Made by a program: the position numbers and the translations under genes. The notes beneath the pieces are model-generated. The model was not told the DNA's origin. It was given only the letters and a program-made list of their open reading frames with translations, and did not search any database. Below, piece after piece: positions 1,567 through 54,239 of a stretch of DNA of 64,000 nucleotides. Positions within the stretch are counted from its first letter, which is position 1; every line of letters starts with the position of its first letter. Origin of the DNA: Candidatus Poribacteria bacterium (GTDB taxonomy: Bacteria; Poribacteria; WGA-4E; WGA-3G); NCBI GenBank assembly GCA_022827185.1, contig JAJDTM010000046.1, positions 68,644-132,643 of the forward strand. The letters run 5' to 3'.

Positions 1567-1634
1567 GCTGAAAACCGAAAACCTTTGCTTGTATAGTATA
1601 TCATATTTTTTTTGGAAATCAAATCATTTATTCA

Positions 1635-1721: not shown

Positions 1722-1727
1722 TTATTA

Positions 1728-17164: not shown

Positions 17165-17183
17165 AACGAAACCTTTCTTAAAT

Positions 17184-17244
17184 GGGACTTACGCAGTCCC
17201 CGTGCAGTCGGGGTTTGAAACTCTTCGCGACGCATCGCGAGGCG
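17184..17244. repeat. Family-B element, partial/degenerate copy
   Basis: GGGACTTACGCAGTCCCCGTGCAGTCGGGGTTTGAAAC... retains the left terminus and the hairpin left arm. Confidence 0.4.
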
Positions 17245-19589: not shown

Positions 19590-19698
19590 ATTTTACTCCT
19601 TCGCAGCGAAATCCGACAGGTGTCTGAGTCGTAAATGGATTTGTTGGCCTGATTCACGGGACCCTGCCCAACAAGATTGTGTTTAGGCGATAGATTTA

Positions 19699-19818
19699 GG
19701 ACTTACGCAAATTTAGCAGAAAACGGATATTTTGCACATAAAAAGTAAATATTCAAACGTTTTTAACCCCCTAAATCCCGCTTATCAGGGGGACTTTAAG
19801 AGGAGATGCGTAAATTCT
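19699..19818. repeat. Composite element: family-B left terminus (GGACTTACGCA) + family-A hairpin (19765-19799) + degenerate right terminus (GATGCGTAAATTC)
   Basis: Read directly from the sequence. The nesting is analogous to the composite at 30524-30596. Confidence 0.5.
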
Positions 19819-19900
19819 AAGATTTTATTTAATAAATATATCACAAAACTTGTTGGATGTCACGTTTTTTTAATTACTGCGTTTCGGTAAAGATTTCGAT

Positions 19901-21871
19901 TCATTCGTTCTTTAGAATGGGTGGAATCTCCCAAAGTAGCACTGTGTGATCGAAATTTTCACTTGCGAGCGTGCGTCCATCGGGTGAATAGATGAGAGAA
20001 GTGACGCTGGAGTATCCTGTGAAAGTTGTTTTGTGTTTTCCGGTGTCAGCATCCCACAACCGGATCGTGCGATCGATGCTTCCTGTAGCAATCGTGTTGC
20101 CATCGAGTGAATAGGCGATAGCAGTAACCCCATCGCTATGTCCGGTCAATGTAATATTATTTTTCCGTGTGTTAATATCCCACAAACGGACAATATTGTT
20201 ATTTCTTCTGCTGGTAGCGAGCGTCCTTCCATCAGGCGAGTATACTAATGCTCTGACATCGCTTGTGTGCTGAGTTGTGATTGTACTTTCGAGCTCGCCC
20301 GTCACAGGATTCCAGAACCGGATCTTACCGCCCAAATCGCCACTGGCGATTGTTCTGCCATCCGGCGAGAAGATCACAGCGGAGCGATAATTGTGGCCTT
20401 CGTATATAACTTTACGTTTCCCCGTTCGGACGTGCCACAAATAGATCGTCCCTTCATCGTGTGTGTAGTATTCTCCAACGGTAACGAGCGTGTTTCCATC
20501 GGGCGAGAACACCACCCGGGATATATCGTATTCGCGATCTGTGAACAGCAGATGCATCCAGTTCGTATGCTTAAGTGTCGTTTTTCGTTTGCCTGTTTTC
20601 GCGTCCCCTAACTGCACGGTGTCGTTCCAATAATTTTCGATAGCGAAAGTATTCGCTTCCGGGGAATAGGCAATCGGCGTGCCTTTGACAGTAAGCGTGG
20701 TTTTTCGTTTGCCTGTCCTTGCGTCCCACACTCCGAAACCTCCTGATTCTCCTGTGGCAAGCGTGTTTCCATCGGGTGAATATGCAAGCAGTTCGATACG
20801 GTTGTGCTTTATGATGGTGGCTTTAGGTGTGCCGGTCTGTGCGTCCCATAACTCAGCTGTGCCGTCCCGACTTACAGTGGCAAACGTATTTCCATCGGGT
20901 GAATATGCTATGGAGGAGACACCCGCCGCGTGTGCGGTGAGCTGCGTTTTGCGTCGCATCGTCCGCGCATCCCACAACCGAACCTTACCGTTCCGGGTTC
21001 CGGTAGCGAGCGTCCTTCCATCGGGTGAGTATGCTATGGACGTAACAGCGTTATGATACCTACTCCAAGGGAGTGCGGCGTTAATCCCTTGTGTATGTTT
21101 CAGAGTGGATTTATGTTTTCCGGTGTCAGTGTGCCACAACCGCACAGTGCTGTCCCGACTTGCAGTGGCGATGGTATTTCCATCAGGTGAATACGCTATA
21201 GCAGTGATCCGCTTCGTGTGTCCCGCGAGCTTGGCTTTGCGTTTCCCTGTGAATGCATCCCACAATTGGACAGTGTTATCTTTATCATCTCTCCGACCGG
21301 TTATCCAACCGCCGCCGGTAGCGATAGTTGTGCCATCGGGTGCGTATGCTACAGCGGTGACACCGCTTGTATGAGGTCCGCTGAGTGTACCGATGCGTTG
21401 GTATGTTTCAGCGTCCCAGACCCGTACGCCACCGTCCGTATTTCCACTAACAATTGTGGTGCCATCCGGTGAATAAGCGATAGAAGTAACCCTGTGTCCA
21501 TACTTTGTAAGCGTGCCTCTGCGTTGCTTTGTGGAAACATCCGATAACAGCACCTTGCTGTCGCTGATTGCTCTGGCGATTATGGTCCCATCGGGTGAAT
21601 ATGCGAATGTAAAAGTAGAAGTACAGTCGGTTTGCGGTAGCAGATCGAGTGCTTTGCCGGTATCTGGATCATAGAACCAAATCCCGACAGAACTGGAAAT
21701 TGCGAGCCGACTGCCATCGGGAGAGAATTGAACTTCACCTATATCTCCCTTACCGAGCCGTGCTTTCGCACCTTCGGGTAGACTGAATTCTGTGTAGTCT
21801 TGGGCGACGCTTGGAAGGCAGCAGATTGAGATTATCAGGAACATCCGTATTAAGAGAACGGAAATTTTCAT
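19901..21871 (-). CDS. Secreted WD40-repeat beta-propeller protein
   Basis: A signal peptide (start trimmed to ATG at 21871, MKISVLLIRMFLIIS) and more than 12 WD40 units (..AYSPDG.T.A.....T.RLWD..TG...). Confidence 0.75.
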   Translation of the reverse strand: MKISVLLIRMFLIISICCLPSVAQDYTEFSLPEGAKARLGKGDIGEVQFSPDGSRLAISSSVGIWFYDPDTGKALDLLPQTDCTSTFTFAYSPDGTIIARAISDSKVLLSDVSTKQRRGTLTKYGHRVTSIAYSPDGTTIVSGNTDGGVRVWDAETYQRIGTLSGPHTSGVTAVAYAPDGTTIATGGGWITGRRDDKDNTVQLWDAFTGKRKAKLAGHTKRITAIAYSPDGNTIATASRDSTVRLWHTDTGKHKSTLKHTQGINAALPWSRYHNAVTSIAYSPDGRTLATGTRNGKVRLWDARTMRRKTQLTAHAAGVSSIAYSPDGNTFATVSRDGTAELWDAQTGTPKATIIKHNRIELLAYSPDGNTLATGESGGFGVWDARTGKRKTTLTVKGTPIAYSPEANTFAIENYWNDTVQLGDAKTGKRKTTLKHTNWMHLLFTDREYDISRVVFSPDGNTLVTVGEYYTHDEGTIYLWHVRTGKRKVIYEGHNYRSAVIFSPDGRTIASGDLGGKIRFWNPVTGELESTITTQHTSDVRALVYSPDGRTLATSRRNNNIVRLWDINTRKNNITLTGHSDGVTAIAYSLDGNTIATGSIDRTIRLWDADTGKHKTTFTGYSSVTSLIYSPDGRTLASENFDHTVLLWEIPPILKNE

Positions 21872-21902
21872 GATGGCTTTTATTCCTTTTTCGTGTTTAG
21901 GT

Positions 21903-23618
21903 CTACTCTTTCTGTAAAGTTGCTTTTCTTTCCATGATGAGCACAGTGCCATTTTGATGCACCTGTGCAGTCGTCGTACCATCGGGGGAATGCAACAATC
22001 TCTTGGAACCCCTTGGGATGTCAGCAGGGGTTGGGGTAAGTTTCCGCCCTGTCTCGGCATCCCACACGCGCACCTTATTTTTCCAATCTCCGGTAGCGAT
22101 TATTCTTTTCCCATCTTTTGAAAATACCACAGTCCGAACAGCCCCTGGTCCTTTAAATATGACCCTTTTGCGTATTCCTGTCCTTGCATCCCACAAATAC
22201 ACCGTTCCTTTTTCGACGGTATAATAATCTCCACCCGTAACGATGGTCTTACCATCGGGAGAATAAGCGATAGGCCCTATATCATACTCACGATTTTGAA
22301 GTATCAAAAAGATGGTGTCAATCAAACCAAAATGCTCGAGTGTTACTTTATGTTTGCCTGTTTTCGCATCCCGTAACAGCACTCGATCATTGTATGAACT
22401 CACCACAGCGATCGTTTTGCCATCGGGAGCATACGTGATGTTAAAGATGATACCTCTATCTCCAGTAAAAGTGTTTTTAAGTTCTCCAGTGGACACATCC
22501 CAAAAGTGTACCTTTCCGGCTTGATTTCCCGTGACAATTGTTTGACTGTCGGGAGAATATGCGGCGGTGTTGATGCGCTTATATCCTGTGAGTATCGCTT
22601 TGGATTTACCTGTGGTGGCATCCCACAATCGCACTGTACCATCTGAACTGGCGGTAGCGATGGTCTTTCCATCGGGTGAATATATAACGGATTTGGTTCT
22701 CTTTGTATGTCCAGTGAAAGTGGATTTAAGTTTCGTTGTCCGTGTGTCCCACAATTGTACGTCACCGTTCCCCGTTCCACAGACGATGGTGTTTCCATTC
22801 GGAGAATATCCGATAGATGTTACACTTTCTTTGTCTGACGTGAGTGTCGTTTTGTGAGTTCCGGTGGTAGCATCCGACAACCGAATTGTCCCATCGTAGC
22901 TGCCAGTCGCGATGGTCTTACTATCTGGAGAATATGCTGCGCAAGAAACTTGTTCTGAATGTCCAGTAAGCGTGATTTTGTGCTTGCCAGTTTTTCCATC
23001 CGCCAAGTGTACCGTGTTATCCGCTGCAGGGGCAGCGTAAGTTGTCCCATCCGGAGAGAATATAACAAAAGTATCCCATGGCATCTGCATTCTACTTGTG
23101 AAAATATTTTGTCCTGTTTGTGTGTCCCATAATCGGATTGTATTGTCACGATGCCATCCACTGGCAGCGATGGTCTCTCCATCTGGAGAGTACGCGATTG
23201 AATTAACACGCGTTGTGTGCCCCATGAGTATTGCTTTATCTTCTCCAGTAGCGACATCCCATACCTCTACTGCAAACATACCACCTCCACGCGTCCGTTT
23301 AGGTTTACCCCAACTTGTACTCGCAATTGTTTTGCCGTCAGGGGCATACGCGAAAGTGTAAGGACGCGTAATGTGTGAACGCTTTAATAATTCCAACGTT
23401 TTTCCTGTTTCGGGATCGTGGAGCCAGATACCGATAGAAGTTGAAATCGCCAGTTTACTCCCATCTGGAGAGAAGTGGACTTCACCGAGGGTGCCTTTGC
23501 CAATACGTGCTATGAGACCTTCCGGTAAGCCGATTTGTGGGTTATCTTGTGCGGTTAATGGGGAACAGCAGACTAAAGCGATAATTATCGTGAATATGAA
23601 AGAAAAGGAAGTTTTCAT
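21903..23618 (-). CDS. Secreted WD40-repeat beta-propeller protein
   Basis: A signal peptide (MKTSFSFIFTIIIALVCCSPLTAQ) and multiple WD40 units. Confidence 0.75.
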   Translation of the reverse strand: MKTSFSFIFTIIIALVCCSPLTAQDNPQIGLPEGLIARIGKGTLGEVHFSPDGSKLAISTSIGIWLHDPETGKTLELLKRSHITRPYTFAYAPDGKTIASTSWGKPKRTRGGGMFAVEVWDVATGEDKAILMGHTTRVNSIAYSPDGETIAASGWHRDNTIRLWDTQTGQNIFTSRMQMPWDTFVIFSPDGTTYAAPAADNTVHLADGKTGKHKITLTGHSEQVSCAAYSPDSKTIATGSYDGTIRLSDATTGTHKTTLTSDKESVTSIGYSPNGNTIVCGTGNGDVQLWDTRTTKLKSTFTGHTKRTKSVIYSPDGKTIATASSDGTVRLWDATTGKSKAILTGYKRINTAAYSPDSQTIVTGNQAGKVHFWDVSTGELKNTFTGDRGIIFNITYAPDGKTIAVVSSYNDRVLLRDAKTGKHKVTLEHFGLIDTIFLILQNREYDIGPIAYSPDGKTIVTGGDYYTVEKGTVYLWDARTGIRKRVIFKGPGAVRTVVFSKDGKRIIATGDWKNKVRVWDAETGRKLTPTPADIPRGSKRLLHSPDGTTTAQVHQNGTVLIMERKATLQKE

Positions 23619-23789
23619 GGTGAGGTATCTCCTTTTTGGAATCGCAAACAGTTCATTTCAAAAAGCCCGTTGGTTCGCTTCCTAACGTTACTTTTGTTGT
23701 AATATGTTTCGGCTTCTTTCAGAAAAATCAAGCTTGCTAAACATTGGAGACTAAACACGCATAAAAACTTCCTATTATATCTACTACTT

Positions 23790-24947: not shown

Positions 24948-25250
24948 GGTGATAAAGTCCTTGTAAAAAATGGTTTCCTTTGTTTTAGATATTTGATACA
25001 ATGTTTTGAATCGCATGGGAAACTGCCATAGGTGGCAATGACATCTCAATGCGAATAGAAGTTATGTAATGCGACATCTTAGGTTCGCATATGTATATAA
25101 TATAATATTAAATATTGAAAATAAACAAGTCAATTTGATAGGACTATTTAGTTATACATAAATTACCGGATTTTCTAAATTTTTGAATCTTCTTTTTCAG
25201 GTTTCCCGGTGCGGTTCATGAAGATTAATTTTTTAATTCGGTAATTTCTT

Positions 25251-25295
25251 GGGGCAGTCCGGTGCGGTTCCAAACCGCACCTACCGGACCTGGGG
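25251..25295. repeat. Family-C palindrome (GGGGCAGTCCGGTGCGGTTCCAAACCGCACCTACCGGACCTGGGG)
   Basis: Near-perfect inverted repeat CCGGTGCGGTT/AACCGCACC(TA)CCGG. Related copies are at 50423-50465 (inverted orientation) and 50704-50741. It lies in the divergent promoter region between 24947 and 25417. Confidence 0.6.
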
Positions 25296-25416: not shown

Positions 25417-26175
25417 ATGGAAAATTTAATCACAGTGATTGGTCGCGGGCACTCTGGGACGCGTGCTATTTCGCATACGTTATACGCCAGTGGTGTTTTC
25501 ATGGGGAGTCAACTGAACCCTTCTGGCGATAAGATACCACCACACGCGATGTATGATGCTTGCCGAGTGATGGCGCAATATGTCAAATGGGAGGGTGGAC
25601 TCTCGTGGGATTTTGATCCGCTTTGGACGATGCCGATTGATCCAGAGTTTGAACGGCTTATTAATACCTACCTTGAGGATGTACTGAAGGATCCGGCATC
25701 TCACAAAGGTTGGAAGATTCCAGAGACGACGCTCGTCTATCCATGGATAATTCGGATGTTCCCTGATATAAAATATATCCACTGGATTCGGGATCCGCGA
25801 GATTGTATTCGGGGCAGCCACAAAACGGACGACCTTCGGGATTTTGGGGTCCCGTATCCTGAAACGGACGACATCTATGAGAGACGCGCCATTTCTTGGA
25901 TCTATCAATATAAACTCATGCAAGCGACACCGATGCCTAAGCATGTTATCCAGATCCGTTTTGAGGATTTTGTTTTGGGACAGGAGCGGATACTCAAGGC
26001 GCTTGAGGCGTTTTTAGGTATCCCGTTAGGTAGGATTATCGTGCGTCCTGACGCAGTGGATCGGTGGAAGAAAGATGTCGCGGCATTGGAACCGGGTGCG
26101 TCGTTACCGCACTACGAATTTGAGTTTCTGAAAAGAGCAATCGTTGAAAACGGTTATCCTTTAACAGCAACCTAA
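25417..26175 (+). CDS. Sulfotransferase-family protein
   Basis: An N-terminal PAPS 5'-PSB-like loop VIGRGHSGTRAIS and a sulfotransferase-like size and fold signature. Moderate confidence only. Confidence 0.45.
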   Translation: MENLITVIGRGHSGTRAISHTLYASGVFMGSQLNPSGDKIPPHAMYDACRVMAQYVKWEGGLSWDFDPLWTMPIDPEFERLINTYLEDVLKDPASHKGWKIPETTLVYPWIIRMFPDIKYIHWIRDPRDCIRGSHKTDDLRDFGVPYPETDDIYERRAISWIYQYKLMQATPMPKHVIQIRFEDFVLGQERILKALEAFLGIPLGRIIVRPDAVDRWKKDVAALEPGASLPHYEFEFLKRAIVENGYPLTAT

Positions 26176-26183
26176 CAGAGACA

Positions 26184-26272
26184 GGACTTATGCATTTTTC
26201 TATGATGATAACTATAGATTACGCACTGCAGGGGGGTTTAAAACCCCCCCTGCAAGGGGAGCTGCGTAAGTC
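26184..26272. repeat. Family-B element, full copy
   Basis: GGACTTATGCATTTTTCTATGATGATAACTATAGATTACGCACTGCAGGGGGGTTTAAAACCCCCCTGCAAGGGGAGCTGCGTAAGTCC: 11-bp inverted termini and a perfect 11-bp internal stem. Confidence 0.7.
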
Positions 26273-26291
26273 CTAAAAAAAAGGAACTATT

Positions 26292-27311
26292 ATGTCAACT
26301 ACTTATCGTGTTGGACTTGTTGGAACAGGTGGAATTGCAAATGCACACGGCAATGCGTGTCAACAAGCACCGAGTGCTGAATTGGCGGCGATCTGTGATG
26401 TGTCTGAAGGTGCGTTAGCCAATTTCGGTGAACGGTTTGATGTAGCACCTGAGCACCGGTATCTCTCTTTAGACGAGATGTTAGAGACTGAAAACTTGGA
26501 CATCGCTATTATCTGTACGTGGGGTGCGTTCCACGCTGAGGTTGGTATCCAGCTTTCTGAATCTCGCCAGGTCAAGGCGATCTTGTGTGAGAAGCCGTTC
26601 ACGTCAACCGCAGCGGAGGCGGAAGCGTTCGTGGGTGCAGCACAAGCGAACGGTGTTCTCGTAGCGGAAGCGTTTAAATTCCGGCATCATCCGATGCACC
26701 TCAAGGCGAAAGAATTAATTGATTCGGGAGCTATCGGGGAGTTTAAGGCACTCCGTAGCACCTTCTGCACGGGTGGTGGCGGCGGTGGACCAGAAACACG
26801 TAAACCTGAGGCGAATTGGCGGTTTAATAAAGCGAAGGGTGGCGGCAGTATCTACGATTTGGCGTGTTACAATATCCACCATGCGCGGTTTATGTTCGGT
26901 GCTGAACCGATTCGGGTATCGGGAATGTCTCAAGCAGGATTAGAAGTAGATGACGGTTCCTACCTACAGTTAGTATTTCCCGGTGAACGGGTCGCCCAGA
27001 TTTCCACCGGTTTTAATTGTGCTGGTGGACAGTACGCTGAAATGGCTGGGTTGGGGGGTATGCTTAGAATTGAGACGGCGTGGAATAATGAGAATTCAGC
27101 TGTCAATATTGTGCTTACCACACGAGAGGGCAGAGAAGTTATCGAGTTTGAACCGTGTTTCCAGTTCGCATTACAATTGGAACATATGTGCGAAGTTTTA
27201 ACAACTGGTGAACCGCATCGGATCTCACCGGAGAGCTGCGTGAATCAGATGCGCACCATTGATGCCGCCTTTGAAGCGATGGCGACGGGACGGACGGTCG
27301 AATTAGGATAG
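26292..27311 (+). CDS. Gfo/Idh/MocA family NAD(P)-dependent oxidoreductase
   Basis: An N-terminal Rossmann VGLVGTGGIANAH and the EKP motif (CEKPF). Confidence 0.8.
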   Translation: MSTTYRVGLVGTGGIANAHGNACQQAPSAELAAICDVSEGALANFGERFDVAPEHRYLSLDEMLETENLDIAIICTWGAFHAEVGIQLSESRQVKAILCEKPFTSTAAEAEAFVGAAQANGVLVAEAFKFRHHPMHLKAKELIDSGAIGEFKALRSTFCTGGGGGGPETRKPEANWRFNKAKGGGSIYDLACYNIHHARFMFGAEPIRVSGMSQAGLEVDDGSYLQLVFPGERVAQISTGFNCAGGQYAEMAGLGGMLRIETAWNNENSAVNIVLTTREGREVIEFEPCFQFALQLEHMCEVLTTGEPHRISPESCVNQMRTIDAAFEAMATGRTVELG

Positions 27312-28148: not shown

Positions 28149-28170
28149 CGGCGGTTGCAGTGTGAGGGTG

Positions 28171-29520
28171 CTACCGATCCTTTTCAACCCGCGGACGAAA
28201 ACTGTGTCCCTTACTGTCAGTTAGGATCATCTCGGATAAATGCACTTTTATGGGTTTGACATCAATAACCTCAAAAGTGAGAGTGGCTAATCTACGGTTC
28301 GCGTTGCCGGCATGTGAAAGCGTGTAAGCGGCAAGTTTCACACGATTTGCAGACACAACTGGCGGTGTAAAAGATGATCTATCCGGTGGATAGTTGTCTT
28401 TATAGTTGACATATCGGAGAACTGTGGCATCAAACTCTACAGTTGCTTGATACGCCACCACGCTCGTTTTGCCTGAAGCGTTAAGAGTGAAAGTTAATAG
28501 TTCACCGACTTTTGGGGATTGAAGTGGGGTTGGTGAAATGCTCACAAGGGTCTGTTTTGCGGGGACAAGTGCCCACAATCCTACCGTGCCATCATCTCCT
28601 GCACTGGCAAGAGTTTTCCCATCTGGACTGAATGCAACATATTCAACCAGTGATGTATGTCCTGTGAAGGTTTTCAAGTGTGTGCTGTTAGCGGTATCCC
28701 ATAACCGAATCGTTTTATCTTTCTTGCCGCCTGTACTGGCAAGAGTTTTTCCGTCTGGACTGAATGCGACACTCAAAACATCAGATGTGTGTCCTTTGAG
28801 GGTCTTCAGATGTTTGCCAGTGGCGACATCCCACAGGCGGATGGTCCAGTCCCAACTGCCACTTGCGATTGTTTTTCCATCTGGACTGAATGCGATACTG
28901 GTGACACTTAATGTATGCCCTTCAAGGGTTTTCAACTGCACACCTGTGGCAATATCCCACACACGAATTATTTTATTCTTACCTCCGCTTGCAAGAATTT
29001 TACTATCTGGACTGAACGCTATTCCCCTAATATCATCCTTGTGTCCGATGAGAGTTTTCAAGTATTTACCTGTGGTAGTATCCCATAGGCGAATTGTAGC
29101 ATCCCAGCTGCCACTTGCGATTGTTTTCCCATCCGGGCTGAACGCAACGTGCCAGACCCTTGCCGTGTGTCCTTTGAGGATTTTCAGTAACTCGCCTGTG
29201 TCAGCGTCCCACAAACGGACGGTATTATCGCCACTACTACTCGCAATTATTTGCCCGTTGGGACTAAAAGCAACACTATAAACTGTATCTGTATGTCCTT
29301 TAAATCTTCTCGGTTGAGTGCCCGCGACAAGATTCCATACCCAAATTCTTTGGTCCCATCCACCACTTACGATTGTATTTCCATCTGGACTGAACGCAAC
29401 ACTCCTCACCCAAGACGTGTGTCCAAAAAGGAAATGTTGGTTTGTGGAATGTTGGCTGAATGCACATGGCGGGAAGGAGAGGATTGTTATCACCAAGATA
29501 CAAAGAAGTGTTGTTTTCAT
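28171..29520 (-). CDS. Secreted WD40-repeat protein with C-terminal cohesin-like beta-sandwich domain
   Basis: A signal peptide (start trimmed to ATG at 29520), seven canonical WD40 units (GHT..V.SVAFSPDG.TIASGS.D.TIRLWD), and a C-terminal domain homologous to the cohesin-like region of 30808..33687. Confidence 0.7.
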   Translation of the reverse strand: MKTTLLCILVITILSFPPCAFSQHSTNQHFLFGHTSWVRSVAFSPDGNTIVSGGWDQRIWVWNLVAGTQPRRFKGHTDTVYSVAFSPNGQIIASSSGDNTVRLWDADTGELLKILKGHTARVWHVAFSPDGKTIASGSWDATIRLWDTTTGKYLKTLIGHKDDIRGIAFSPDSKILASGGKNKIIRVWDIATGVQLKTLEGHTLSVTSIAFSPDGKTIASGSWDWTIRLWDVATGKHLKTLKGHTSDVLSVAFSPDGKTLASTGGKKDKTIRLWDTANSTHLKTFTGHTSLVEYVAFSPDGKTLASAGDDGTVGLWALVPAKQTLVSISPTPLQSPKVGELLTFTLNASGKTSVVAYQATVEFDATVLRYVNYKDNYPPDRSSFTPPVVSANRVKLAAYTLSHAGNANRRLATLTFEVIDVKPIKVHLSEMILTDSKGHSFRPRVEKDR

Positions 29521-29543
29521 GTTTGATTGTTTTCTTACTTGGT

Positions 29544-30509
29544 TCAAGGCTTCGTCTCGGTTTTCATCTTACCCCACGACGTAGTTAAGAGTTGTAGCGA
29601 GGGAGAGACAGGTAACTGCCTCGGATCGAACCAATTGCCGGAATGATTACCGCCATCTTTTGTGAGTTGTATGACCTTATGACGCTTCAAGTCGATTTTG
29701 AAGATTTGTGAATTGTTTCCAACGACACCCTCTGTATAAATAAGTTCATCGCCAGCGGGTGCCCAAGCAGGTGTGTTTGCGATCAACGATGTCATCCGGC
29801 TGAGATAACTCCCATCGCGATTAACAATGAATACGGACTGTTGCTGTTCTGCGGGTCGAAACCAGACGAAGGCGATTCTATTGTCAACGGGTGACCAGGC
29901 GGGATGAAACATTCTGGGGAAATCGTCGCGAAGCAGCGTCTCTTGTTTGTAGGTTTCTAAGTCGATAAATCGGATTTGGCGGCTTGCCCAGTGAATCTCA
30001 TCTGCTACAACAAAAGCGATTTCTGTTCCATCTGACGACCACGTTGGATACCCACTATGGACGTTCTTTAGATGTACAATCGGCTTTGCTGAAGTAGCGT
30101 CTGCCTTGGCAATATAAATGTTTATACTGCCTAAGTTGTGCTGTGAATAGGCAATACTTTTTCCATCTGGTGACCATGCAGGGTGGGTTCTATATGCCCG
30201 CGCGTTAGGGAAGAGTGGACGCACATTTCTTCCGTCCACGTCCATTAGATGAAGGTCCTGCGTTCCGTCGCGGTCGGATGTAAAGAGAATCTTATCGCCA
30301 GTTGGTGAGATGACGGGTTCTCGATCGACAGCACGGTCATAGGTTAATCTCTCCTGTCGAGTGCCATCGGGGTTCATCATGTAGATTTCCCAATTCCCAT
30401 CGCGATTTGATGAAAACACAATCTTTTCGGTCCTGAGCTGCTTGGCTGAAACAGGACATAGCAATCCGAGGATGAGGCAACAACAGATGAAAATGTTTCG
30501 CAATTTCAT
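29544..30509 (-). CDS. TolB-like periplasmic beta-propeller (PD40 repeat) protein
   Basis: A signal peptide and PD40 repeats (..PAWSPDGKSIAYS.. / ..PTWSSDGTEIAFV..). Confidence 0.65.
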   Translation of the reverse strand: MKLRNIFICCCLILGLLCPVSAKQLRTEKIVFSSNRDGNWEIYMMNPDGTRQERLTYDRAVDREPVISPTGDKILFTSDRDGTQDLHLMDVDGRNVRPLFPNARAYRTHPAWSPDGKSIAYSQHNLGSINIYIAKADATSAKPIVHLKNVHSGYPTWSSDGTEIAFVVADEIHWASRQIRFIDLETYKQETLLRDDFPRMFHPAWSPVDNRIAFVWFRPAEQQQSVFIVNRDGSYLSRMTSLIANTPAWAPAGDELIYTEGVVGNNSQIFKIDLKRHKVIQLTKDGGNHSGNWFDPRQLPVSPSLQLLTTSWGKMKTETKP

Positions 30510-30523
30510 GAGAGAACCCTTTA

Positions 30524-30596
30524 GGACTTACGCAAATTTATTTAACCCCCTAAATCCCGCTTATCAGGGGGACTTTAAGAGGCAATGCGTAAGTCC
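30524..30596. repeat. Composite element: family-A hairpin (30544-30578) nested between family-B inverted termini (GGACTTACGCA ... TGCGTAAGTCC)
   Basis: Read directly from the sequence. It is intergenic, between the TolB-like and the large WD40 gene. Confidence 0.65.
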
Positions 30597-30807
30597 TATC
30601 CTTTATATCACTTATTCTGTTGATGTTCAAGTACGTTTGGTAGGTAGGTATTGAGAAATGGATAGGTGCCGCTTGAAAATAAGGTTTATGCCCTCAATTG
30701 CGAAGATAATAACATATTCGTCAAAAAAAAGTCAAGAAAAAGTCAAATAATTCTTTTTCTTGACGGATTCTACTGAAAAACATATCTTTGGTTGTCGCTA
30801 ATGGACG

Positions 30808-33687
30808 TTACTTCATAATCAACATCTTTCGGGTTGCTGTGAAGTCTCCTGCTGTTAATGTATAGAAATATATACCGCTCGCAACGGGTTCACCGAGTTC
30901 ATTTTTGCCATCCCAATACGCTGCACGTGTCCGATCGTGATAGATACCTAACGGTTGATGTCCGAGAGTTAAGGTTCGCACGAGTTTTCCGTCTGCTGCA
31001 TGGATCGTAAGCGTGACATCCGCGGGTGCTGCCAACTGGTAGGGTATCCATGTCTCTGGATTGAATGGATTTGGATAGTTTGGGAGCAGTGTGGTCTCTT
31101 CTGGAGTTAGTGCTGCGAGGAGTTGTTGGAGGATTAAAATGCCGCGTTGGAAGGTTGGGTTTACAAGTCCGACCTGTTGTGCTTCACGTAGCCACTGTTG
31201 TACATCTTTTCCTGTGAACGGAATTGTCGTATTGCTTCTCCACGCTGCCGGCGCGCCTGCGGTGTCGGTTATTGCACCTGCGACCAAAGTGAGGTCAACG
31301 ATATTGACGATTCCATCTCCATTGACATCTGCTAAATTTTCACCTGTCTGCGAAAAGTTTGAGGCAACGAGTACTAAGTCTTGGATGTCAACCACACCAT
31401 TGCCATCCACATCGCCTACTGCAAGCGACGGTTCCGTTATTTGTCCGGTTTTAACGCGCGCGTACGAGATCCGACTTGTGCTATCAGTGAGAAGCACATC
31501 AGATAAGGTTAGCATAGATGCTTTAGGGGCGATGACCTCAAACGTAATGGTGGCGAGTGTCCCGGAACCGCTGACTTCGCCAGCAAAAGATGTTGCCGCG
31601 AGTGTCACTCTATTCTCTGTAGCAAGAACGGGTATAGCGAACGCGTCCGATAGCAGATAGTCGCCATTCGTACTTTCAAGATAACGGATGGCAGCGGGAT
31701 CAAACCGGATGGTTAATTGATAACCTGCCACAGCACTTCCGTCTGCGATATTGAGGGAAAAAGTTAATTGTTCGCCGATAGCGGGTGATTGTACTGGAGC
31801 TGGTGAAAAACTCACGGTTGCGTACATATTGGTTGGCGGCGTAAAGTTCCAAAGAAGCACTGTGCCATCTAAACTCCCACTTGCGAGCGTGTTTCCATCT
31901 GGACTGAAGGCGATGCTCAGGATACGATTTGTGTGTCCGGTGAGTGTTTGAACCTGTTCACCAGAAATCGTATCCCACAGCCCAATGGTGTCATCCCAGC
32001 TGGCACTTGCGAGCGTGTTCCCATCTGGACTGAAGGCGATATTAAGGACATAGTCCGTATGTCCAGTGAGGGTTCGCTTGTGTTCGCCGAAGACGGCATC
32101 CCATAGGCGGATGGTGCCGTCGTCACTCCCACTTGCGAGTGTATTCCCATCAGGGCTGAACGCAATGCTTCTGACATAATCCGTGTGTCCAATGAGTGTC
32201 TGCTGATGCTGCCCGGAGACAACATTCCATAGATGAATGATGCCATCAGCGTTGCTGCTTGCGAGTGTATTTCCATCAAGGCTGAATGCGATGCCTAAGA
32301 TGGCATTTGTATCCCTAACGAGTGTCCGCTGATATTCACCTGTGGTAGCATTCCATAAGCGGATTGTGTTATCTGAACTGCCACTTGCGAGCGTCCTACC
32401 ATCAGGGCTGAACGCGATATCTCTGACGGTATCTGTATGTCCGGTGAGTATTTGCGGGTCCTGCCCGGCGGTAATATTCCATAGACGAATAGTGCCGTCG
32501 TCACTTGCACTTGCGAGTGTATTTCCATCAGAGTTGAACGCAACTGCCCCGACCCAATCGGTATGTCCGGTCAGGATCTGCTGAGATACACCGGAGGTAG
32601 CATCCCACAGATGCACAGTGCCGTCCACGCTCCCACTTGCGAGCGTTTCTCCATCCGTACTAAATGCGACGCTACTGATATAATCCGTATATCCTGTGAG
32701 TGTTTGTCTGATACTTCCAAAGACAGCATCCCGCAGGAAGATTGTTCCATCTGCCCCAGCACTCGCAAGTGTTCCGCCGCTCGAGTTGAATGCAACGCTC
32801 AGTACAGTATCCGTATGTCCGGTGAGTGTTTGCTGACGCTGCCCCGAGGTTGTATCCCACAAATGGATAGTGGTATCAGCACTCCCGCTTGCGAGTGTAT
32901 TTCCATCAGGGCTGAATACGATGCTTAGGACAGCACGCGTATGTCCAGGCAACGCTCTCTGAAGCACGCCAAACGTAGCGTTCCATAAACGAATATTGCC
33001 ATCTCTGCTCCCGCTTGCGAGGTTCCCGCCAGTAGCATTGAAAGTGACACTATAAACCTCGTCCGTATGTCCTGGTAATACCCGGTGTTCCCCGGTGGTG
33101 ACGTTCCACAGACGGACAGTGCTGTCAGCACTTCCACTGGCAAGTGTTCCACCGGTTGCATTGAAAGCGATGCTGTAAACAGCATCCGTGTGTCCTGAGA
33201 ATGTCTGGTATTCACCTGTAGTAGTATTCCATAAGCGAATAGTGCTATCAGCACTTCCACTGGCAAGTGTCAGATTATCCGTGCCAAAAGCGACGCTATA
33301 AACCGCGCCCGTGTGTCCTGAGAATGCCTGTTGATGTTCACCTGTGGCGGCATTCCACAGATGGACGGTACCATCCCGACTACCACTTGCGAGCGTGGTG
33401 TTATCAGTGCTGAATGCGATGCTGCTGGCATCCTCTGTATGCCTCGTGAGCAGTGCGACTTCCTCATAAGTCTGTGTATTATAGAGCCAAATACCGATAG
33501 AGGTTGCGATTGCCAAACGCGTACTATCTGGCGAATACTTTAGTTCGTTGATCCACCCTTTACCGAGGCGTACTTTGGCACCTTGCGGTAAATTAAATGT
33601 TGAAGCCTCTTGGGCAAAACTGTTCAGTGGGTATGTGCTTAAACAGATCAATAACATCAAAAAAATCGAAAATAATATTTTTTTCAT
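30808..33687 (-). CDS. Secreted multi-WD40 (~14 repeats) protein with cohesin-like domain, dockerin (double Ca-binding loop) and Por_Secre_tail/FlgD-Ig-like C-terminal domain
   Basis: A signal peptide and repeated LTGHTD.V.SVAFS.DG.TLASGS.D.TIRLW units. The cohesin-like segment is G.QLTFSLNIADGSAVAGYQLTIRFDPAAI. The dockerin is DVDGNGVVDIQDLVLVA...DVNGDGIVNIVDLTLVAG. The C-terminus is LPNYPNPFNPETWIPYQL....YWDGKNELGEPVASGIYFY. Confidence 0.75.
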   Translation of the reverse strand: MKKILFSIFLMLLICLSTYPLNSFAQEASTFNLPQGAKVRLGKGWINELKYSPDSTRLAIATSIGIWLYNTQTYEEVALLTRHTEDASSIAFSTDNTTLASGSRDGTVHLWNAATGEHQQAFSGHTGAVYSVAFGTDNLTLASGSADSTIRLWNTTTGEYQTFSGHTDAVYSIAFNATGGTLASGSADSTVRLWNVTTGEHRVLPGHTDEVYSVTFNATGGNLASGSRDGNIRLWNATFGVLQRALPGHTRAVLSIVFSPDGNTLASGSADTTIHLWDTTSGQRQQTLTGHTDTVLSVAFNSSGGTLASAGADGTIFLRDAVFGSIRQTLTGYTDYISSVAFSTDGETLASGSVDGTVHLWDATSGVSQQILTGHTDWVGAVAFNSDGNTLASASDDGTIRLWNITAGQDPQILTGHTDTVRDIAFSPDGRTLASGSSDNTIRLWNATTGEYQRTLVRDTNAILGIAFSLDGNTLASSNADGIIHLWNVVSGQHQQTLIGHTDYVRSIAFSPDGNTLASGSDDGTIRLWDAVFGEHKRTLTGHTDYVLNIAFSPDGNTLASASWDDTIGLWDTISGEQVQTLTGHTNRILSIAFSPDGNTLASGSLDGTVLLWNFTPPTNMYATVSFSPAPVQSPAIGEQLTFSLNIADGSAVAGYQLTIRFDPAAIRYLESTNGDYLLSDAFAIPVLATENRVTLAATSFAGEVSGSGTLATITFEVIAPKASMLTLSDVLLTDSTSRISYARVKTGQITEPSLAVGDVDGNGVVDIQDLVLVASNFSQTGENLADVNGDGIVNIVDLTLVAGAITDTAGAPAAWRSNTTIPFTGKDVQQWLREAQQVGLVNPTFQRGILILQQLLAALTPEETTLLPNYPNPFNPETWIPYQLAAPADVTLTIHAADGKLVRTLTLGHQPLGIYHDRTRAAYWDGKNELGEPVASGIYFYTLTAGDFTATRKMLIMK

Positions 33688-33807
33688 TATGAGGTATAGA
33701 TGCTCCTATGTTTGGCTGCCGTGGTGTGTTGGCATACAAATTATAGACTCTTTTTCTAAGTGTGGCACGAAAGATAGTGTGGTATCAATTTTTGGTTTGA
33801 GGTAGAT

Positions 33808-36921: not shown

Positions 36922-36948
36922 TCCGGATCCTCCAATCTTTTATTTTCA

Positions 36949-37036
36949 GGACTTAAGCATTTTTCTATGATAACCTATGTATTACGCACTGCAGGTGGGG
37001 TTTCAAACCTCACCTGCAGTGGGGGCTGCGTAAGTC
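36949..37036. repeat. Family-B element, full copy
   Basis: GGACTTAAGCATTTTTCTATGATAACCTATGTATTACGCACTGCAGGTGGGGTTTCAAACCTCACCTGCAGTGGGGGCTGCGTAAGTCC. The stem is mutated relative to 26184 but complementarity is preserved. Confidence 0.7.
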
Positions 37037-37086
37037 CTAATTTTTTGTGACACCGTGAAGTCGTTTAGGGTTTCAGCGTGAATAAA

Positions 37087-41275: not shown

Positions 41276-41340
41276 ATTAAATTCAGTTGATATTTGTTCA
41301 CCAGATGTGGTATTATTAACCCAAAAGAGAGGATTAGGTA

Positions 41341-43398
41341 ATGGCGAAAAAAATATCAAAGCGTGTTAAAACACTAAGTGGGTTTATGAAATGGGTGGAA
41401 CAATTCAACGATGGGCAATATCTGTTTCGAGGTGTTTCAAAACACACTCACAAATTGGAAGCATCTGCTTATCGTCGTCTGCCAGAAGCGGAAAGAAATA
41501 ATCAAAATAAACTCCTCAAAATCAATCAGGAGTTGATAGATAAAGCACGTCTTCTGGGGCACGATCAGAAAGATGGACATTACCTTTCTGATTTAGAACT
41601 GTTGGCAGAACTTCAGCACTTTGGTGCTGCTACCTGCTTGATAGATTTCACACGTAGCGCGCAGATCGCACTATGGTTTGCTTGCCAACAGAGTTCGACT
41701 GGAGAAGCAAATGGAAAAGTCTTCGCTGTGCGTTCTGACGATCCCGTACTCTTTAGAACCATTACCCCTAAATTGGTAGTCGAAAAAGACATTGGTTACT
41801 TTTTTGAAGAGGATGAGAGCGGGATATCTCCGCTATATCAATGGCAACCCAAGCAACAGAATAATCGTGTTATCGGCCAGCAATCCATTTTTATATTCGG
41901 TGGATCTCAAATTGAGGTGGCAGCAGAATGTGTAATTCTAAAAAGTAGTAAATCAGAAATTCTGGATTCTTTGGACAACTCTGCAGGTATCACTGAAGCG
42001 AGTATATATCCTGATTTTGACGGTTTCGCGCGTCTACATGCCCAAAATAAGCCATACATTGAACCGAATGTTCAAAGTTATCTGCAACGCGGGACCGAAG
42101 CACACTTAGAAGGCAAGCTTGATGATGCAATTGCCTACTACAGTGAAGTTATATCACTACAGCCAAACACTTCTACGCTAACTATAGCTTACCAAGGTCG
42201 TGGTTTTGCGTACTTTTTCAAACGTGAGTTTGACCCCGCTATTAAAGACTTTACCAAGGCAATAAATTCTAATTCCAAAGATGCCGTAACTTATTACAGT
42301 CGTGGGACAGTCTATAGTCTTACACGCGAATTTGATCTCGCTATCGCTGACTATACTAAAGCTATAGAACTTAATCCTGAGTTTGCTGAAGTCTACGTTC
42401 ATCGTGGTGCTGCTTACATTGACAATAACAAAGTTGATTTGGCCCTCAAGGACTATAACAAAGCGATGGAGCTTAAACCCGATGACCCTGTTACTTATGT
42501 CAGGCAAGGTATTGCTTACGGCAAAAAGGGGGAAATTGACACAGCTATTAAAAATCTTGGTAAGGCAATAGAACTCAATCCAAAATTTGCAGAAGCCTAC
42601 GCTACTCGTGGTGCTGCTTACATTGACAAAAAGGAACTTGATTTGGCTATTAGCGACTGTACGAAGGCGATAGAATTAGACCCAACTGATGCTACAGTAT
42701 ATTGCTACCGCGGTCGTGCTTACAACGAAAAAGGCATTTTTAACGAGGCGATTGATGACTTGACTCAAGCGATAGAACTGGATCCACATCTTGCCGAAGC
42801 TTACCTGAACCGTGGTAATGCCTACGATCATAAGAAAGATTTCAACAAGGCGATTGGTGATTATACTAAAGCGATAGAACTGGATCCAGATGACACTGAC
42901 TTCTACTGCTATCGCGGTTTTGCTTACCAACGCAAAGGTGATCTCAATTTGGCAATTGATGACTTTACCGAAGCGATAAAGAGAAATCCGAACTTTGCTG
43001 AAGCTTATCTGGATCGTGGATGTATTTATGGAGAAATAAGAGATTTTGACAAGGCGATTAATGATTTCACCAAATTGGTACAACTCAGACCTGATGATAG
43101 CAGAGCATACACTGCTCGCGGTGTTACTTACCGCAGGAAAGGTAATTTTAACTTAGCGATTAATGACTTTAGTAGAGGAATAAAAGTAGATCCAGATGAT
43201 GCTAAAGCTTATTACCACCGGGCCGATCTACGATTACACTTAAGGGAATTCAAAAAAGCCAAATCAGACCTAACAACTGCCAGAGACATGGGGGTAAATA
43301 TTATCGCTGCATTCCATAATAGCTACGAAAGCATTGAAGATTTTGAGCAGAAAACCGATATTCAGTTACCAGAAGACATCGCCGCGCTCTTGACCTAG
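41341..43398 (+). CDS. FRG-domain protein fused to ~13 TPR repeats and a conserved C-terminal module
   Basis: An N-terminal FRG motif (QYLFRGVSKHTHKLEASAYRR) and 34-aa TPR units (..A..Y..A..LDP..A.AY..RG.AY...). The C-terminal ARDMGVNIIAAFHNSYESIEDFEQKTDIQLPEDIAALL is shared with three neighbouring TPR proteins. Confidence 0.65.
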   Translation: MAKKISKRVKTLSGFMKWVEQFNDGQYLFRGVSKHTHKLEASAYRRLPEAERNNQNKLLKINQELIDKARLLGHDQKDGHYLSDLELLAELQHFGAATCLIDFTRSAQIALWFACQQSSTGEANGKVFAVRSDDPVLFRTITPKLVVEKDIGYFFEEDESGISPLYQWQPKQQNNRVIGQQSIFIFGGSQIEVAAECVILKSSKSEILDSLDNSAGITEASIYPDFDGFARLHAQNKPYIEPNVQSYLQRGTEAHLEGKLDDAIAYYSEVISLQPNTSTLTIAYQGRGFAYFFKREFDPAIKDFTKAINSNSKDAVTYYSRGTVYSLTREFDLAIADYTKAIELNPEFAEVYVHRGAAYIDNNKVDLALKDYNKAMELKPDDPVTYVRQGIAYGKKGEIDTAIKNLGKAIELNPKFAEAYATRGAAYIDKKELDLAISDCTKAIELDPTDATVYCYRGRAYNEKGIFNEAIDDLTQAIELDPHLAEAYLNRGNAYDHKKDFNKAIGDYTKAIELDPDDTDFYCYRGFAYQRKGDLNLAIDDFTEAIKRNPNFAEAYLDRGCIYGEIRDFDKAINDFTKLVQLRPDDSRAYTARGVTYRRKGNFNLAINDFSRGIKVDPDDAKAYYHRADLRLHLREFKKAKSDLTTARDMGVNIIAAFHNSYESIEDFEQKTDIQLPEDIAALLT

Positions 43399-43416
43399 CC
43401 AACGGACGAAAAAGAT

Positions 43417-43697
43417 CAACAAACCAAGAGTTTTCGCAGACTTCCACAACGCAGATGCAAAAGGCAGGGGTCCGATTGAACTGTGCCGGACAGCGGCGGA
43501 CCTTGAACGTCAGAAAATTATGCTGCGAAATGGATAGGCTCTTATTATCTATAGTGAAGAGTTGGAGGTTGAACGCATTGTTTGCTACTCCGAAAAAGAA
43601 AAGTTGTGGACAGGGGTGATTGATTGGGATGCCATTCAAGAGATAAAACCTGTCCCCTCTCAAATAACTCCGCAAATCCGTGACATAGCGCGGTAAT
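43417..43697 (+). pseudogene. Degenerate copy of the small protein gene found intact at 50794..51078 (no start codon, in-frame TAG)
   Basis: Nucleotide homology to 50806-51078 is ~90%, but ...CTGCGAAATGGATAGGCT has a TAG where the intact copy has CAG (Q), and there is no in-frame ATG. Confidence 0.45.
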
Positions 43698-43926
43698 GTG
43701 ATATACGCCTACACCTGATGAGATGGCTTCTTTTCAACTAATGCCTTAAGCATAGCATCGGGACGCGGTATTGTCTCATCGCGGATTGCACAGATTTCGC
43801 AGATTTTTTGAATCTGTATCATCTAGCATTATAGGTGACCGGTATGAAATCCGCGTCATCCGTACTATCTGTGCAAATCCGAGATTCAGACGATTGCGAG
43901 ATTTCATCCTCAAAGAAATTGGGATT

Positions 43927-48017: not shown

Positions 48018-48044
48018 AGCTAAGCCGCGCTAAGATAATTCATA

Positions 48045-48266
48045 ATGATTCAGAATAATCAAGAACTTGAAACAACGTTGGAACGCATTGAACGCTTTCA
48101 AAAGATAGTTGAGAAACTCAAAGCGTCTGAAACAAATCCACGGAATTATGAGTTATCCACGGGCGGTTTCCTTGCGGAAATCGACCGGATGAAACTGGAA
48201 GTGAGAAAGTATCTATCCATTCATTCGAGCGAATTGATAGAACAAATTGCTGAAGGCAGTACCTAA
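48045..48266 (+). CDS. Small coiled-coil protein of unknown function
   Basis: A 73-aa ORF between the ATPase and the next TPR gene with no clear SD. It may be a real small adaptor or may be spurious. Confidence 0.3.
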   Translation: MIQNNQELETTLERIERFQKIVEKLKASETNPRNYELSTGGFLAEIDRMKLEVRKYLSIHSSELIEQIAEGST

Positions 48267-48337
48267 AAATAAGCAAAATCAATCCGCGTCATCCGTGAAA
48301 TCCGCGAAAATTCGCGATTTGCGGCGTACTCGCCCAA

Positions 48338-49663: not shown

Positions 49664-49666
49664 AGA

Positions 49667-50158: not shown

Positions 50159-50397
50159 CAGGCGGGTTTACAACGCACACTCACGTTGTATGGAAGTGAC
50201 AGAATAAATTAATTGCTACCAGATATTGCCGAAATGTTGACGTAGTAGTAGGAGCAAAGCCTAATCCACCGCTTCAAAACCGCTGCCAGTTTCAAGTAGG
50301 AGAGCATTCTGTCTGCACGATTTATCCCAGCAATCCTTTAATCCTGATTCAGACAATATTATACATACCGCTCTGCTGGAGGAGAAGGAAAAACGAC

Positions 50398-50790: not shown

Positions 50791-50793
50791 ACG

Positions 50794-54235: not shown

Positions 54236-54239
54236 TAAT

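Follow-up and report, generated by a model that had tools for sequence, protein, structure and literature searches.

What are the short palindromic repeats that recur between the genes of a Candidatus Poribacteria contig, and what keeps their arms matched while their sequence drifts? In a stretch of 64,000 nt of contig JAJDTM010000046.1 (assembly GCA_022827185.1)—hereafter the window—a first-pass annotation had described such a repeat family, family B, and had offered two readings for it: a family resembling repetitive extragenic palindromes (REPs) or miniature transposable elements with inverted repeats (MITEs), or a small structured RNA. Here, we follow up on this family, taking the copy at 26182–26275 as the focal element. 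It is very probable that the family-B elements are non-autonomous DNA transposons of ~93 bp—MITEs—which carry no gene, bear the ends of an insertion sequence (IS) of the IS701 family, and have spread in Poribacteria.

Family-B elements in the window

A profile built from the copies reported earlier (nhmmer) recovers five full copies and one half copy in the window (Table 1), so the repeats themselves are real. The 11-mer GGACTTACGCA of their termini occurs there 13 times with up to one mismatch against an expectation of 1.0, a count that is reached in none of 100 shuffles. The centre GGTTTNAAAC[C/T] is present in all six copies, the half copy included, and nowhere else in the window. The stems vary among the copies with their complementarity kept, and all copies are located between open reading frames (ORFs). 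In these respects—termini, conserved loop, variable complementary stems, intergenic position—the first-pass description was correct.

Its borders and its orientations need revision. The elements extend 2 bp further at each end than had been given, so that the terminal inverted repeat (TIR) is 13 bp long (YA + GGACTTACGCA) and 5-bp repeats lie outside of it; the half copy ends near 17235 and not at 17244. All full copies had been said to share one orientation, while the copy at 54144–54237 is inverted: its long spacer lies on the opposite side of the hairpin, and a repeat search returns it as an inverted match to the copy at 1634–1705. Together with the half copy at 17183–17235, it is reverse-complemented with respect to the other four.

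The family-B elements of the window measure 92–94 bp and have no coding capacity—nhmmer finds no transposase-derived part in them. Altogether, eight elements with GGACTTACGCA-type ends are found in these 64 kb. The focal copy is predicted to fold at −21.3 kcal/mol as DNA (z = −5.6 against shuffles) and at −38.1 kcal/mol as RNA of the other strand (z = −5.5 against shuffles). A third small hairpin in its left spacer is not conserved among the copies. An exact-protein look-up for the gene adjoining the focal copy gives an identical 116-nt spacer in both other assemblies; hence, the focal MITE is present in both.

Terminal repeats, target-site duplications, and empty sites

A logo of the flanks shows the inverted repeat to be longer by two bases (Y-A … T-R) and, thus, yields the 13-bp TIR YAGGACTTACGCA…TGCGTAAGTCCTR, with more than 90% conservation per position. 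Target-site duplications of 5 bp are perfect in 48 of the 88 elements of the Poribacteria loci and the window, with one mismatch in 17 more, and they are perfect in 92 of 120 metagenome elements that were retrieved by their TIRs only and have both flanks (see below); by chance, such a match would arise in about 1 in 1000 per element. Three elements of the window bear perfect duplications (TTATT, ATTTT, and AGATT; Table 1), the other copies there having decayed ones or none. The reconstructed target sites are AT-rich, roughly symmetric, and variable 5-mers.

Empty sites complete this picture. For each element, the two flanks were joined into a simulated empty site and compared with all fetched DNA by blastn, which brought up two orthologous filled/empty pairs with one 5-mer left at each empty site. 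The first pair consists of locus L085, filled at 2906–2998 by a 93-bp family-B MITE with AAAGG on both sides, and the window itself, which is empty at 21885–21889; the flanks are 91% identical. The second consists of L077, filled at 1938–2031 with AGAAC on both sides, and L057, empty at ~1245 with a single AGAAC. In L077, the insertion parts the GGGAGA ribosome-binding site from the ATG of the downstream gene, the two being 98 bp apart in the filled allele. As the MITEs can come to lie between the ribosome-binding site of a gene and its ATG in this way, they may affect expression—and L077 versus L057 constitutes a natural test case for the effect of a MITE on translation.

The empty site of the window also touches on gene calling. 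It lies just upstream of an internal ATG at ~21870; the ORF listed at 19901–22060, therefore, probably starts there, and its overlap with the ORF at 21903–23618 would be only apparent.

An autonomous IS701-family partner

Locus L073 has a lone terminus and, next to it, a reading frame that ends in …IKMDFA-stop, the TAA lying inside the TIR. The homologues of this frame carry the annotation IS4 or IS701 transposase and are fragmentary, and two protein searches with C-terminal fragments returned only fragments of up to 243 aa. On contigs with longer fragments, two TIR-bounded elements were found. The one in L105 (2215–3205) has 991 bp, TAGGACTTACGCA/TGCGTAAGTCCTA ends, and the duplication TTAAT; the one in L103 (252–1344) has 1093 bp and is frameshifted, and compared with it L105 carries a 109-bp internal deletion. 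Joining the two frames of L103 gave a conceptual transposase of 342 aa, and intact 342-aa proteins surfaced only afterwards. This conceptual protein scores 363 bits with the NCBIfam model NF049921 (transpos_IS701_2; cut-off 250) over profile positions 2–317 of 318, and also matches Pfam DDE_Tnp_1. A search with it retrieved 5802 homologues, many of which have exactly 342 aa and come from contigs of ~1094 bp. An intact IS is present in L106 (2942–4035): it is 1094 bp long, has TAGGACTTACGCA/TGCGTAAGTCCTA ends and the perfect duplication ATAAA, and encodes an intact 342-aa ORF, whose TAA stop (4027–4029) lies inside the right TIR.

Since this 1094-bp IS shares its ends and its 5-bp duplication with them, the family-B elements are read as MITEs—and neither as REPs mobilised by a REP-associated tyrosine transposase (RAYT) nor as RNA genes. 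The TIRs, the 5-bp duplications, the filled/empty sites, and the identical ends of an autonomous IS701-family element, thus, support the MITE-like option of the first-pass annotation. Identical TIRs and an identical duplication length likewise suggest that an IS701 transposase mobilises the 93-bp elements.

Intermediates of decay were met as well. The element in L229 (1430–1917) is a 470-bp TIR-bounded derivative of the IS, in which an internal deletion has joined the first 28 codons and the last ~100 in frame; its right TIR is present once more, 9 bp downstream. As candidates for full-length ISs, the long-range TIR pairs L073 4812–5891 and L083 240–1502 were rejected, for each pairs a lone end with a MITE, and the genes between them are ordinary.

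The closest described element is ISPlag1 of Planktothrix agardhii, a member of the IS701 group of 1306 bp with the TIR CAGGACTTACGCAAGCACGCTATATATAG (PMC2464740). This TIR reads CAGGACTTACGCAAGC…, its first 13 bases being identical to those of the window elements (CAGGACTTACGCA), and a 197-bp remnant with TIRs was reported alongside it (PMC2464740). Related IS701-family ISs have 1.09–1.3 kb and NF049921 transposases, and the one in L106 shares the ends and the 5-bp duplication of the window elements. In contrast to these ISs, the window elements hold no transposase sequence, and their interior is unrelated beyond ~13–16 bp per end; they are ~93 bp long and reside in Poribacteria, while ISPlag1 resides in Cyanobacteria. 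Judging from these ends, the MITE family appears to be derived from, or at least mobilised via the ends of, an ISPlag1-like IS701-family IS. Our literature search found no MITE described in Poribacteria and no link of IS701 to this MITE family, and it found these TIRs printed only in the paper on ISPlag1 (PMC2464740). The poribacterial family is, hence, one not described before, of an ordinary kind of element.

Distribution in Poribacteria and beyond

A scan of one genome per species with the pattern GGTTTNAAACC, 12–32 nt, TGCGTAAGTCC returned at least 102 stretches, nearly all of them from Candidatus Poribacteria and from at least 20 species-level genomes—including several complete chromosomes—against about 6 matches expected by chance (arithmetic from the collection size). 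The spread of these matches also marks the window, with its WD40 and tetratricopeptide repeat genes, as poribacterial. Within the fetched Poribacteria loci (L001–L102), nhmmer finds 118 non-overlapping matches, 84 of which are full length. In a sample of 120 GGTTTNAAACC centres, 115 lie within ~100 nt of a TIR; hence, the hairpin does not spread alone.

A few matches come from other phyla or deviate in their interior. Methylobacter marinus A45 (L011 3957–4050 and L060 2080–2224) has TIR-bounded elements with a different hairpin, the one in L011 with a perfect duplication ATAAT. Locus L052 is a further one outside Poribacteria with these ends. An Anaerolineaceae metagenome-assembled genome (MAG; loci L029 and L046) and an unclassified MAG show a GTAGGGG(A/C)GG-GTTTCAAAC-CC..CCCCTAC hairpin that adjoins the right TIR; in the Anaerolineaceae copies, the hairpin beside the right TIR reads GTAGGGGAGG-GTTTCAAAC-CCTCCCCTAC. 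In some family-B variants, one hairpin arm—which can be either arm—contains an extra module (GTTTTTG…GTTTCTTC) of at least ~21 bp (Table 1), and L010, L024, and L099 hold still longer inserts between the hairpin halves.

Covariation of the inner hairpin

The first-pass annotation had taken covariation in the stems as a sign of selection on structure. We assessed this on 70 distinct copies from at least 20 species and counted two helices, namely TIR against TIR and the inner hairpin. The inner hairpin shows two-sided change in 11 of its 14 pairs with 89.5% of cells paired; none of 500 shuffles reaches any of these measures, and slid controls collapse. The covariation, thus, persists with more copies. 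For the TIR helix, two-sided change is seen at the outermost Y/R position only, 9 pairs being one-sided and 3 departing only via unpaired cells. Compensated and unpaired cells stand at 72:37 in the inner helix and at 0:47 in the TIR helix. Two subfamily-defining pairs (columns 57:80 with A-T/T-A, columns 62:75 with G-C/A-T) account for most of the 72 compensated cells; when they are left out, the inner count is 11:29 versus 0:47 for the TIRs, still a difference (Fisher p = 8e-5). As the copies are related, all such cell counts exceed the number of changes that arose independently. Perfect pairing is seen in nine distinct stems of 10 bp, and the stem in Poribacteria mostly starts with CTGCAGG. 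Hence, what is conserved in the TIRs is their sequence, as one would expect where a protein binds, and what is conserved in the hairpin is its complementarity.

The kind of change is informative too. Single-sided mismatches in the stem of the inner hairpin comprise 12 G:T and 12 A:C, and this equality speaks for a strand-symmetric DNA palindrome and not for an RNA of one strand. The two-sided changes include many transversion pairs, for which there is no route through a wobble intermediate, and a 2-nt block change of GG/CC to TT/AA (L055 and L077). The covariation is best read as upkeep of a strand-symmetric DNA palindrome that is carried as cargo. The earlier claim, thus, stands in so far as the covariation is real, though limited to the inner hairpin; selection and templated correction are both still candidates for its cause. 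More generally, a covarying stem with as many G:T as A:C mismatches is a warning that covariation alone does not prove an RNA.

Position relative to genes

The copies are intergenic; the median distance is 23–29 nt from the stop codon upstream of them and ~30 nt to the start codon that follows. With stop and start codons only tens of nucleotides away, most copies are probably co-transcribed with their neighbours. Whichever way the element is read, the hairpin has no U-tract behind it. Promoter-like matches are confined to a weak, flank-dependent TATGAT −10-like sequence (9 of 12), and there is one terminator-like match, which relies on a T-rich duplication.

Two explanations for a preferred orientation were rejected: a replication-linked one, as in the lagging-strand bias of IS200-like elements, since orientation against local GC skew is 32:36 and shows no bias, and an asymmetric target motif, since the target is AT-rich and roughly symmetric. 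Nor did the element yield a terminator or a convincing promoter by which such a preference could be explained.

Proposed mechanism and points that weigh against it

A DDE transposase of the IS701 family would bind and cleave the element at its 13-bp ends, YAGGACTTACGCA and the inverse of it; the enzyme would be supplied in trans from a 1094-bp IS with the same ends. By cut-and-paste chemistry, the element would insert at AT-rich sites, where a cut staggered by 5 bp would, on repair, leave the 5-bp duplication. The family has spread via short intergenic spacers in at least 20 species of Poribacteria. Conservation of the ends as sequence would follow from their being read by a protein. The cargo is unrelated to the IS and consists of an asymmetric spacer and a perfect palindrome, GC-rich, 12–14 bp long, and centred on TTTNAAA, the arms of which might be kept matched either by selection for a hairpin or cruciform or by hairpin-templated correction during replication.

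Several observations weigh against this proposal or limit its reach. In about one-fourth of the copies, a target-site duplication cannot be recognised, in keeping with age. The scan pattern fixed the GGTTTNAAACC centre and the right TIR of Poribacteria copies, so the conservation of both is partly ascertainment. The enzyme is scarce: when the transposase was compared by tblastn with the 102 Poribacteria loci (780 kb) and the window, the C-terminal remnant in L073 was the sole match, with none in the window, and the Poribacteria-type homologues recovered are all fragments of up to 146 aa. The Poribacteria-type DNA sampled holds only decay products of the IS, namely the L073 remnant and the L229 derivative. 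Since no transposase beyond the L073 remnant occurs in the sampled DNA, mobilisation in trans within Poribacteria may be only historical. Lastly, there is a bias in orientation. Among 88 family-B copies (L001–L102 and the window), assessed with crude longest-ORF gene calls, 46 lie between same-strand genes, and of these 34 have their canonical strand antisense to the genes and 12 have it sense (binomial p = 0.0016); with flanking genes of at least 150 aa, the ratio is 28:11. The first-pass claim that orientation is independent of the strand of the flanking genes does, hence, not hold in this larger sample, and the bias in orientation that it had proposed to look for exists with respect to same-strand genes and not with respect to local GC skew. 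Such an antisense bias is not predicted by a purely DNA-level parasite with symmetric ends, and it is the main hint of selection through transcription—be it an RNA-level effect or a promoter/terminator effect of the asymmetric cargo.

Alternative explanations

Two readings would replace the transposon altogether. In the one, the palindrome is a REP/REPIN that was spread as single-stranded DNA by a RAYT, an IS200/IS605-like Y1 transposase. A GC-rich, intergenic, covarying palindrome would suit this, and the stems of many sister cargoes as well as of the Anaerolineaceae matches start as in GTAGGGG…CCCCTAC, recalling GTAG-tagged REPs (PMC3733652); the poribacterial stem, though, mostly has CTGCAGG at this place and not GTAG. 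More decisively, RAYT/IS200-type mobility makes neither 13-bp TIRs nor 5-bp duplications, the cognate enzyme that was found is a DDE transposase of IS701 type, and nearly all GGTTTNAAACC centres lie near a TIR, which together leaves this reading hardly credible. The same TIRs and duplications, with a target that is a variable AT-rich 5-mer, led us to reject the IS200/IS605-derived palindrome-associated transposable elements (PATEs), which have a subterminal hairpin at each end, neither TIRs nor duplications, and insert 3′ of a fixed tetra- or pentanucleotide. In the other reading, the copies are small structured RNA genes or cis-regulatory RNA motifs under selection on RNA structure. The strong predicted fold (z about −5.5), the covarying inner stem, the orientation bias of 34:12 relative to flanking genes, and the probable co-transcription are all in line with it. 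An RNA of one strand should, however, tolerate G:U and not A:C, so that equal numbers of G:T and A:C mismatches oppose it, and many of the rarer two-sided changes need double transversions (G-C to U-A, C-G to U-A). Further, one-fourth of the copies in same-strand context have the other orientation, the promoter-like matches are only weak and flank-dependent, and the transposon hallmarks account for copy number and borders. Rfam 15 gives no match at gathering score in the whole window and none at E ≤ 1 in 26100–26360. We, hence, regard RNA genes or motifs as very improbable; what is left of the earlier pair of options—REP/MITE-like or small structured RNA—is the MITE, with the REP/RAYT variant opposed by TIRs, duplications, and the DDE partner, and the RNA by the absence of an Rfam match, the presence of both orientations, and the mismatch counts.

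Two further readings accept the MITE and concern its hairpin only. Host selection could act on the transcribed copy as an mRNA 3′-end protector, attenuator, or insulator, as proposed for ERIC, Correia, and REPs. Orientation is biased relative to transcription and not relative to GC skew, the spacers are very short and the copies just 3′ of stop codons, and the stem has kept its complementarity in four subfamilies and at least 20 species; from other MITEs, transcripts are known whose stable stem-loops influence the stability of mRNA (PMC10969869; PMC3733652). The mismatches are, on the other hand, strand-symmetric, a U-tract is missing behind the hairpin in both orientations, and sister MITE families that have the same ends and no hairpin are equally successful—making host selection somewhat doubtful to us. 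Alternatively, the matched arms could be a mutational by-product of intrastrand template switching (quasipalindrome correction) with no selection on structure. This would produce the G:T/A:C symmetry, and it would account for the transversion pairs and the GG/CC to TT/AA block of L055 and L077, which are unlikely as stepwise compensation; the TIR helix, equally complementary and held by a protein, shows two-sided change only at its outermost Y/R position. The mechanism rests on general knowledge of quasipalindrome mutagenesis, ~5% of stem cells are still mismatched—the same as in the TIRs—and the orientation bias is left unexplained. We, therefore, hold quasipalindrome correction as a tentative explanation of the hairpin. 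For the elements as a whole, the IS701-type MITE is the reading that we follow below.

Comparison with known elements

Bacterial MITEs are known from several groups—Correia/NEMIS elements from Neisseria, ERIC from Enterobacteria and Yersinia, RUP and BOX from Streptococcus, Nezha from Cyanobacteria—and are mobilised in trans by the transposase of an IS (PMC10969869; PMC3733652). Like these, family B is small, non-coding, multicopy, and intergenic, bears TIRs and a duplication, and inserts at AT-rich targets; the transcripts are predicted to form stable stem-loops in either case. ERIC and Correia elements have orientation-dependent effects on neighbouring mRNAs. Family B is set apart by the sequence of its TIRs, its cognate IS family (IS701), and its duplication length of 5 bp. 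With ~93 bp, it is also shorter than most bacterial MITEs, and in its cargo, one perfect palindrome is the conserved part and drifts in sequence with complementarity kept. REP/REPINs and GTAG-tagged palindromes share with family B a GC-rich intergenic palindrome of 25–35 nt that is variable yet paired, and in several cases sister cargoes share the GTAG start with REPs (PMC3733652). Unlike family B, whose palindrome lies inside a DDE-type MITE, REPs have no TIRs, no duplication, and a Y1 (HUH) transposase, the palindrome itself being what moves, often in inverted pairs.

For annotation, this implies that these repeats should be masked as IS701-derived MITEs and not as RNA genes or REPs. Since the MITEs have spread in at least 20 Poribacteria species, they are also handy markers of strain history, as the filled/empty pairs show.

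Same ends, many cargoes

A metagenome scan with the two 12-bp ends only and 50–80 nt between them, which samples elements of 76–106 bp, gave at least 120 stretches (L107–L226) with 122 TIR-bounded elements. Their interiors fall into 47 unrelated clusters, of which 1 resembles the poribacterial cargo. Many of these cargoes form a strong perfect hairpin, often GTAGGGG…CCCCTAC. Folding is weak in three of the larger clusters, which comprise 11, 10, and 7 copies; hence, a hairpin is common and not required for transposition. The REP types known from Cyanobacteria, Chloroflexi, and the Planctomycetes–Verrucomicrobia–Chlamydiae (PVC) group include palindromes with a GTAG tag (PMC3733652), so that some cargoes may be captured REP-like sequences.

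The lengths of the 47 clusters, among the elements listed, peak at 92–93 and 102–103 bp, with few at 82–85 and none at 96–98 bp. A Rayleigh analysis has its peak at 10–10.5 bp (R = 0.59), which none of 5000 uniform or normal null samples reaches; owing to the narrow range (30 bp) and a sample limited to the elements listed, this phasing at ~10 bp is only suggestive. In Poribacteria, the canonical length is 93 bp, and the extra-module variants have ~114 and ~135 bp. The internal eliminated sequences (IESs) of Paramecium show 10-bp periodic sizes, which were ascribed to helical phasing in the excision complex, or transpososome loop, with reference to work on IS50 (PMC3464196). The cargo families resemble these IESs in their ~10-bp length spacing; they differ from the IESs and from IS50 in being a natural bacterial MITE superfamily, the lengths of which are here read from sequences. 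For IS50/Tn5, experiments on length, bending, and twisting are said to have been reported by Goryshin, Kil & Reznikoff in 1994.

Taken furthest, the YAGGACTTACGCA ends could mark a large cross-phylum superfamily of ~90-bp MITEs with helical-turn lengths (~83, 93, and 103 bp; in Poribacteria 93, ~114, and ~135 bp), whose palindromes ease synapsis by cruciform extrusion or flexibility and which Poribacteria have co-opted as an orientation-dependent intergenic mRNA element. We think this combined scenario rather unlikely. If true, the elements would be a natural read-out of twist and bend limits, with an IS701-type transpososome that synapses ends on DNA far below the persistence length, and the co-option in intergenic mRNA of Poribacteria would explain the 3:1 antisense bias. 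The ~10-bp spacing by itself, if it holds in a full census, would be natural evidence for physical limits on moving very short DNA.

Features of the window and further repeats

The positions of the elements and of related features are collected in Table 1.

Table 1. Family-B elements of the window, elements sharing their ends, and related features. Positions refer to the window unless a locus is given; the profile column lists the extent of the nhmmer match.
Feature	Position	Strand	Profile match	Remarks
Focal family-B MITE	26182–26275	+	26184–26273	94 bp, canonical orientation
Genes next to focal copy	25417–26175; 26292–27311			Sulfotransferase-like gene; Gfo/Idh/MocA gene
Flanks of focal copy				AGAGA/AAAAA, decayed target-site duplication (2 mismatches)
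Focal left TIR	26182–26194	+		13 bp, CAGGACTTATGCA; 1 mismatch to consensus YAGGACTTACGCA
Focal inner palindrome/hairpin	26227–26254	.		TGCAGGGGGG-TTTAAAA-CCCCCCCTGCA; covarying part of the element
Focal right TIR	26263–26275	+		13 bp, TGCGTAAGTCCTA; in the autonomous IS, this repeat contains the transposase stop TAA
Family-B MITE	1633–1724	+	1635–1721	92 bp, canonical; perfect duplication TTATT (1628–1632, 1725–1729); 3-nt change without compensation in left hairpin arm
Family-B MITE	36947–37039	+	36949–37037	93 bp, canonical; perfect duplication ATTTT (36942–36946, 37040–37044)
Family-B MITE	57470–57561	+	57472–57559	92 bp, canonical; GCTGGC(A/G)AGG-stem subfamily; no recognisable target-site duplication; abuts stop codon of gene 57562–58290 (−)
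Family-B MITE	54144–54237	−	54148–54235	Inverted; one degenerate TIR (GGAACTCACGCA); between convergent genes, 2 nt from stop codon of 54240–57263 (−)
Truncated family-B copy	17183–17235	−	17185–17235	Inverted; right TIR and half of the hairpin
Second-cargo MITE	19697–19819	.		123 bp; family-B TIRs (right one degenerate, TGCGTAAATTCTA); cargo …AACCCCCTAAATCCCGCTTATCAGGGGGACTTTAAG…; perfect duplication AGATT (19692–19696, 19820–19824)
Second-cargo MITE	30522–30598	.		77 bp; family-B TIRs; short version of the 19697–19819 cargo; duplication CCCTT/TCCTT (1 mismatch)
Empty target site	21885–21889	−		Single AAAGG in short spacer between two WD40-repeat genes
Extra-module family-B variants	L059 4724–4832; L048 2590–2699; L078 638–748; L044 5918–6047			
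Extra-module family-B variants	L016 5937–6043; L070 7314–7400; L003 5823–5933; L032 387–478			

The second cargo, shared by the elements at 19697–19819 and 30522–30598, reads AACCCCCTAAATCCC(G/C)CTTATCAGGGGGACTTTAAG and also occurs in L018 4565–4651 and L067 790–883. A second family of GC-rich hairpins—GTCCGGTGCGGTT-CCA-AACCGCACCTACCGGAC and variants—is found in both orientations at 25247–25293, 50422–50469, and 50703–50733 (also at ~25200–25215) and is without GGACTTACGCA termini; its stems, too, differ and stay complementary (GTGCGGTT/AACCGCAC versus GTTCGGTT/AACCGAAC).

Poribacteria are a phylum of sponge symbionts, and the coding part of the window bears a mark of this. Several large genes at 19900–23620, 28170–29550, 30800–33690, and 41340–52540 hold long arrays of diverged coding repeats of 126 bp (WD40-like) and 102 bp (tetratricopeptide repeat- or TPR-like). 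Eukaryote-like repeat proteins in sponge symbionts typically have such arrays. In the window, the arrays dominate the direct-repeat output.

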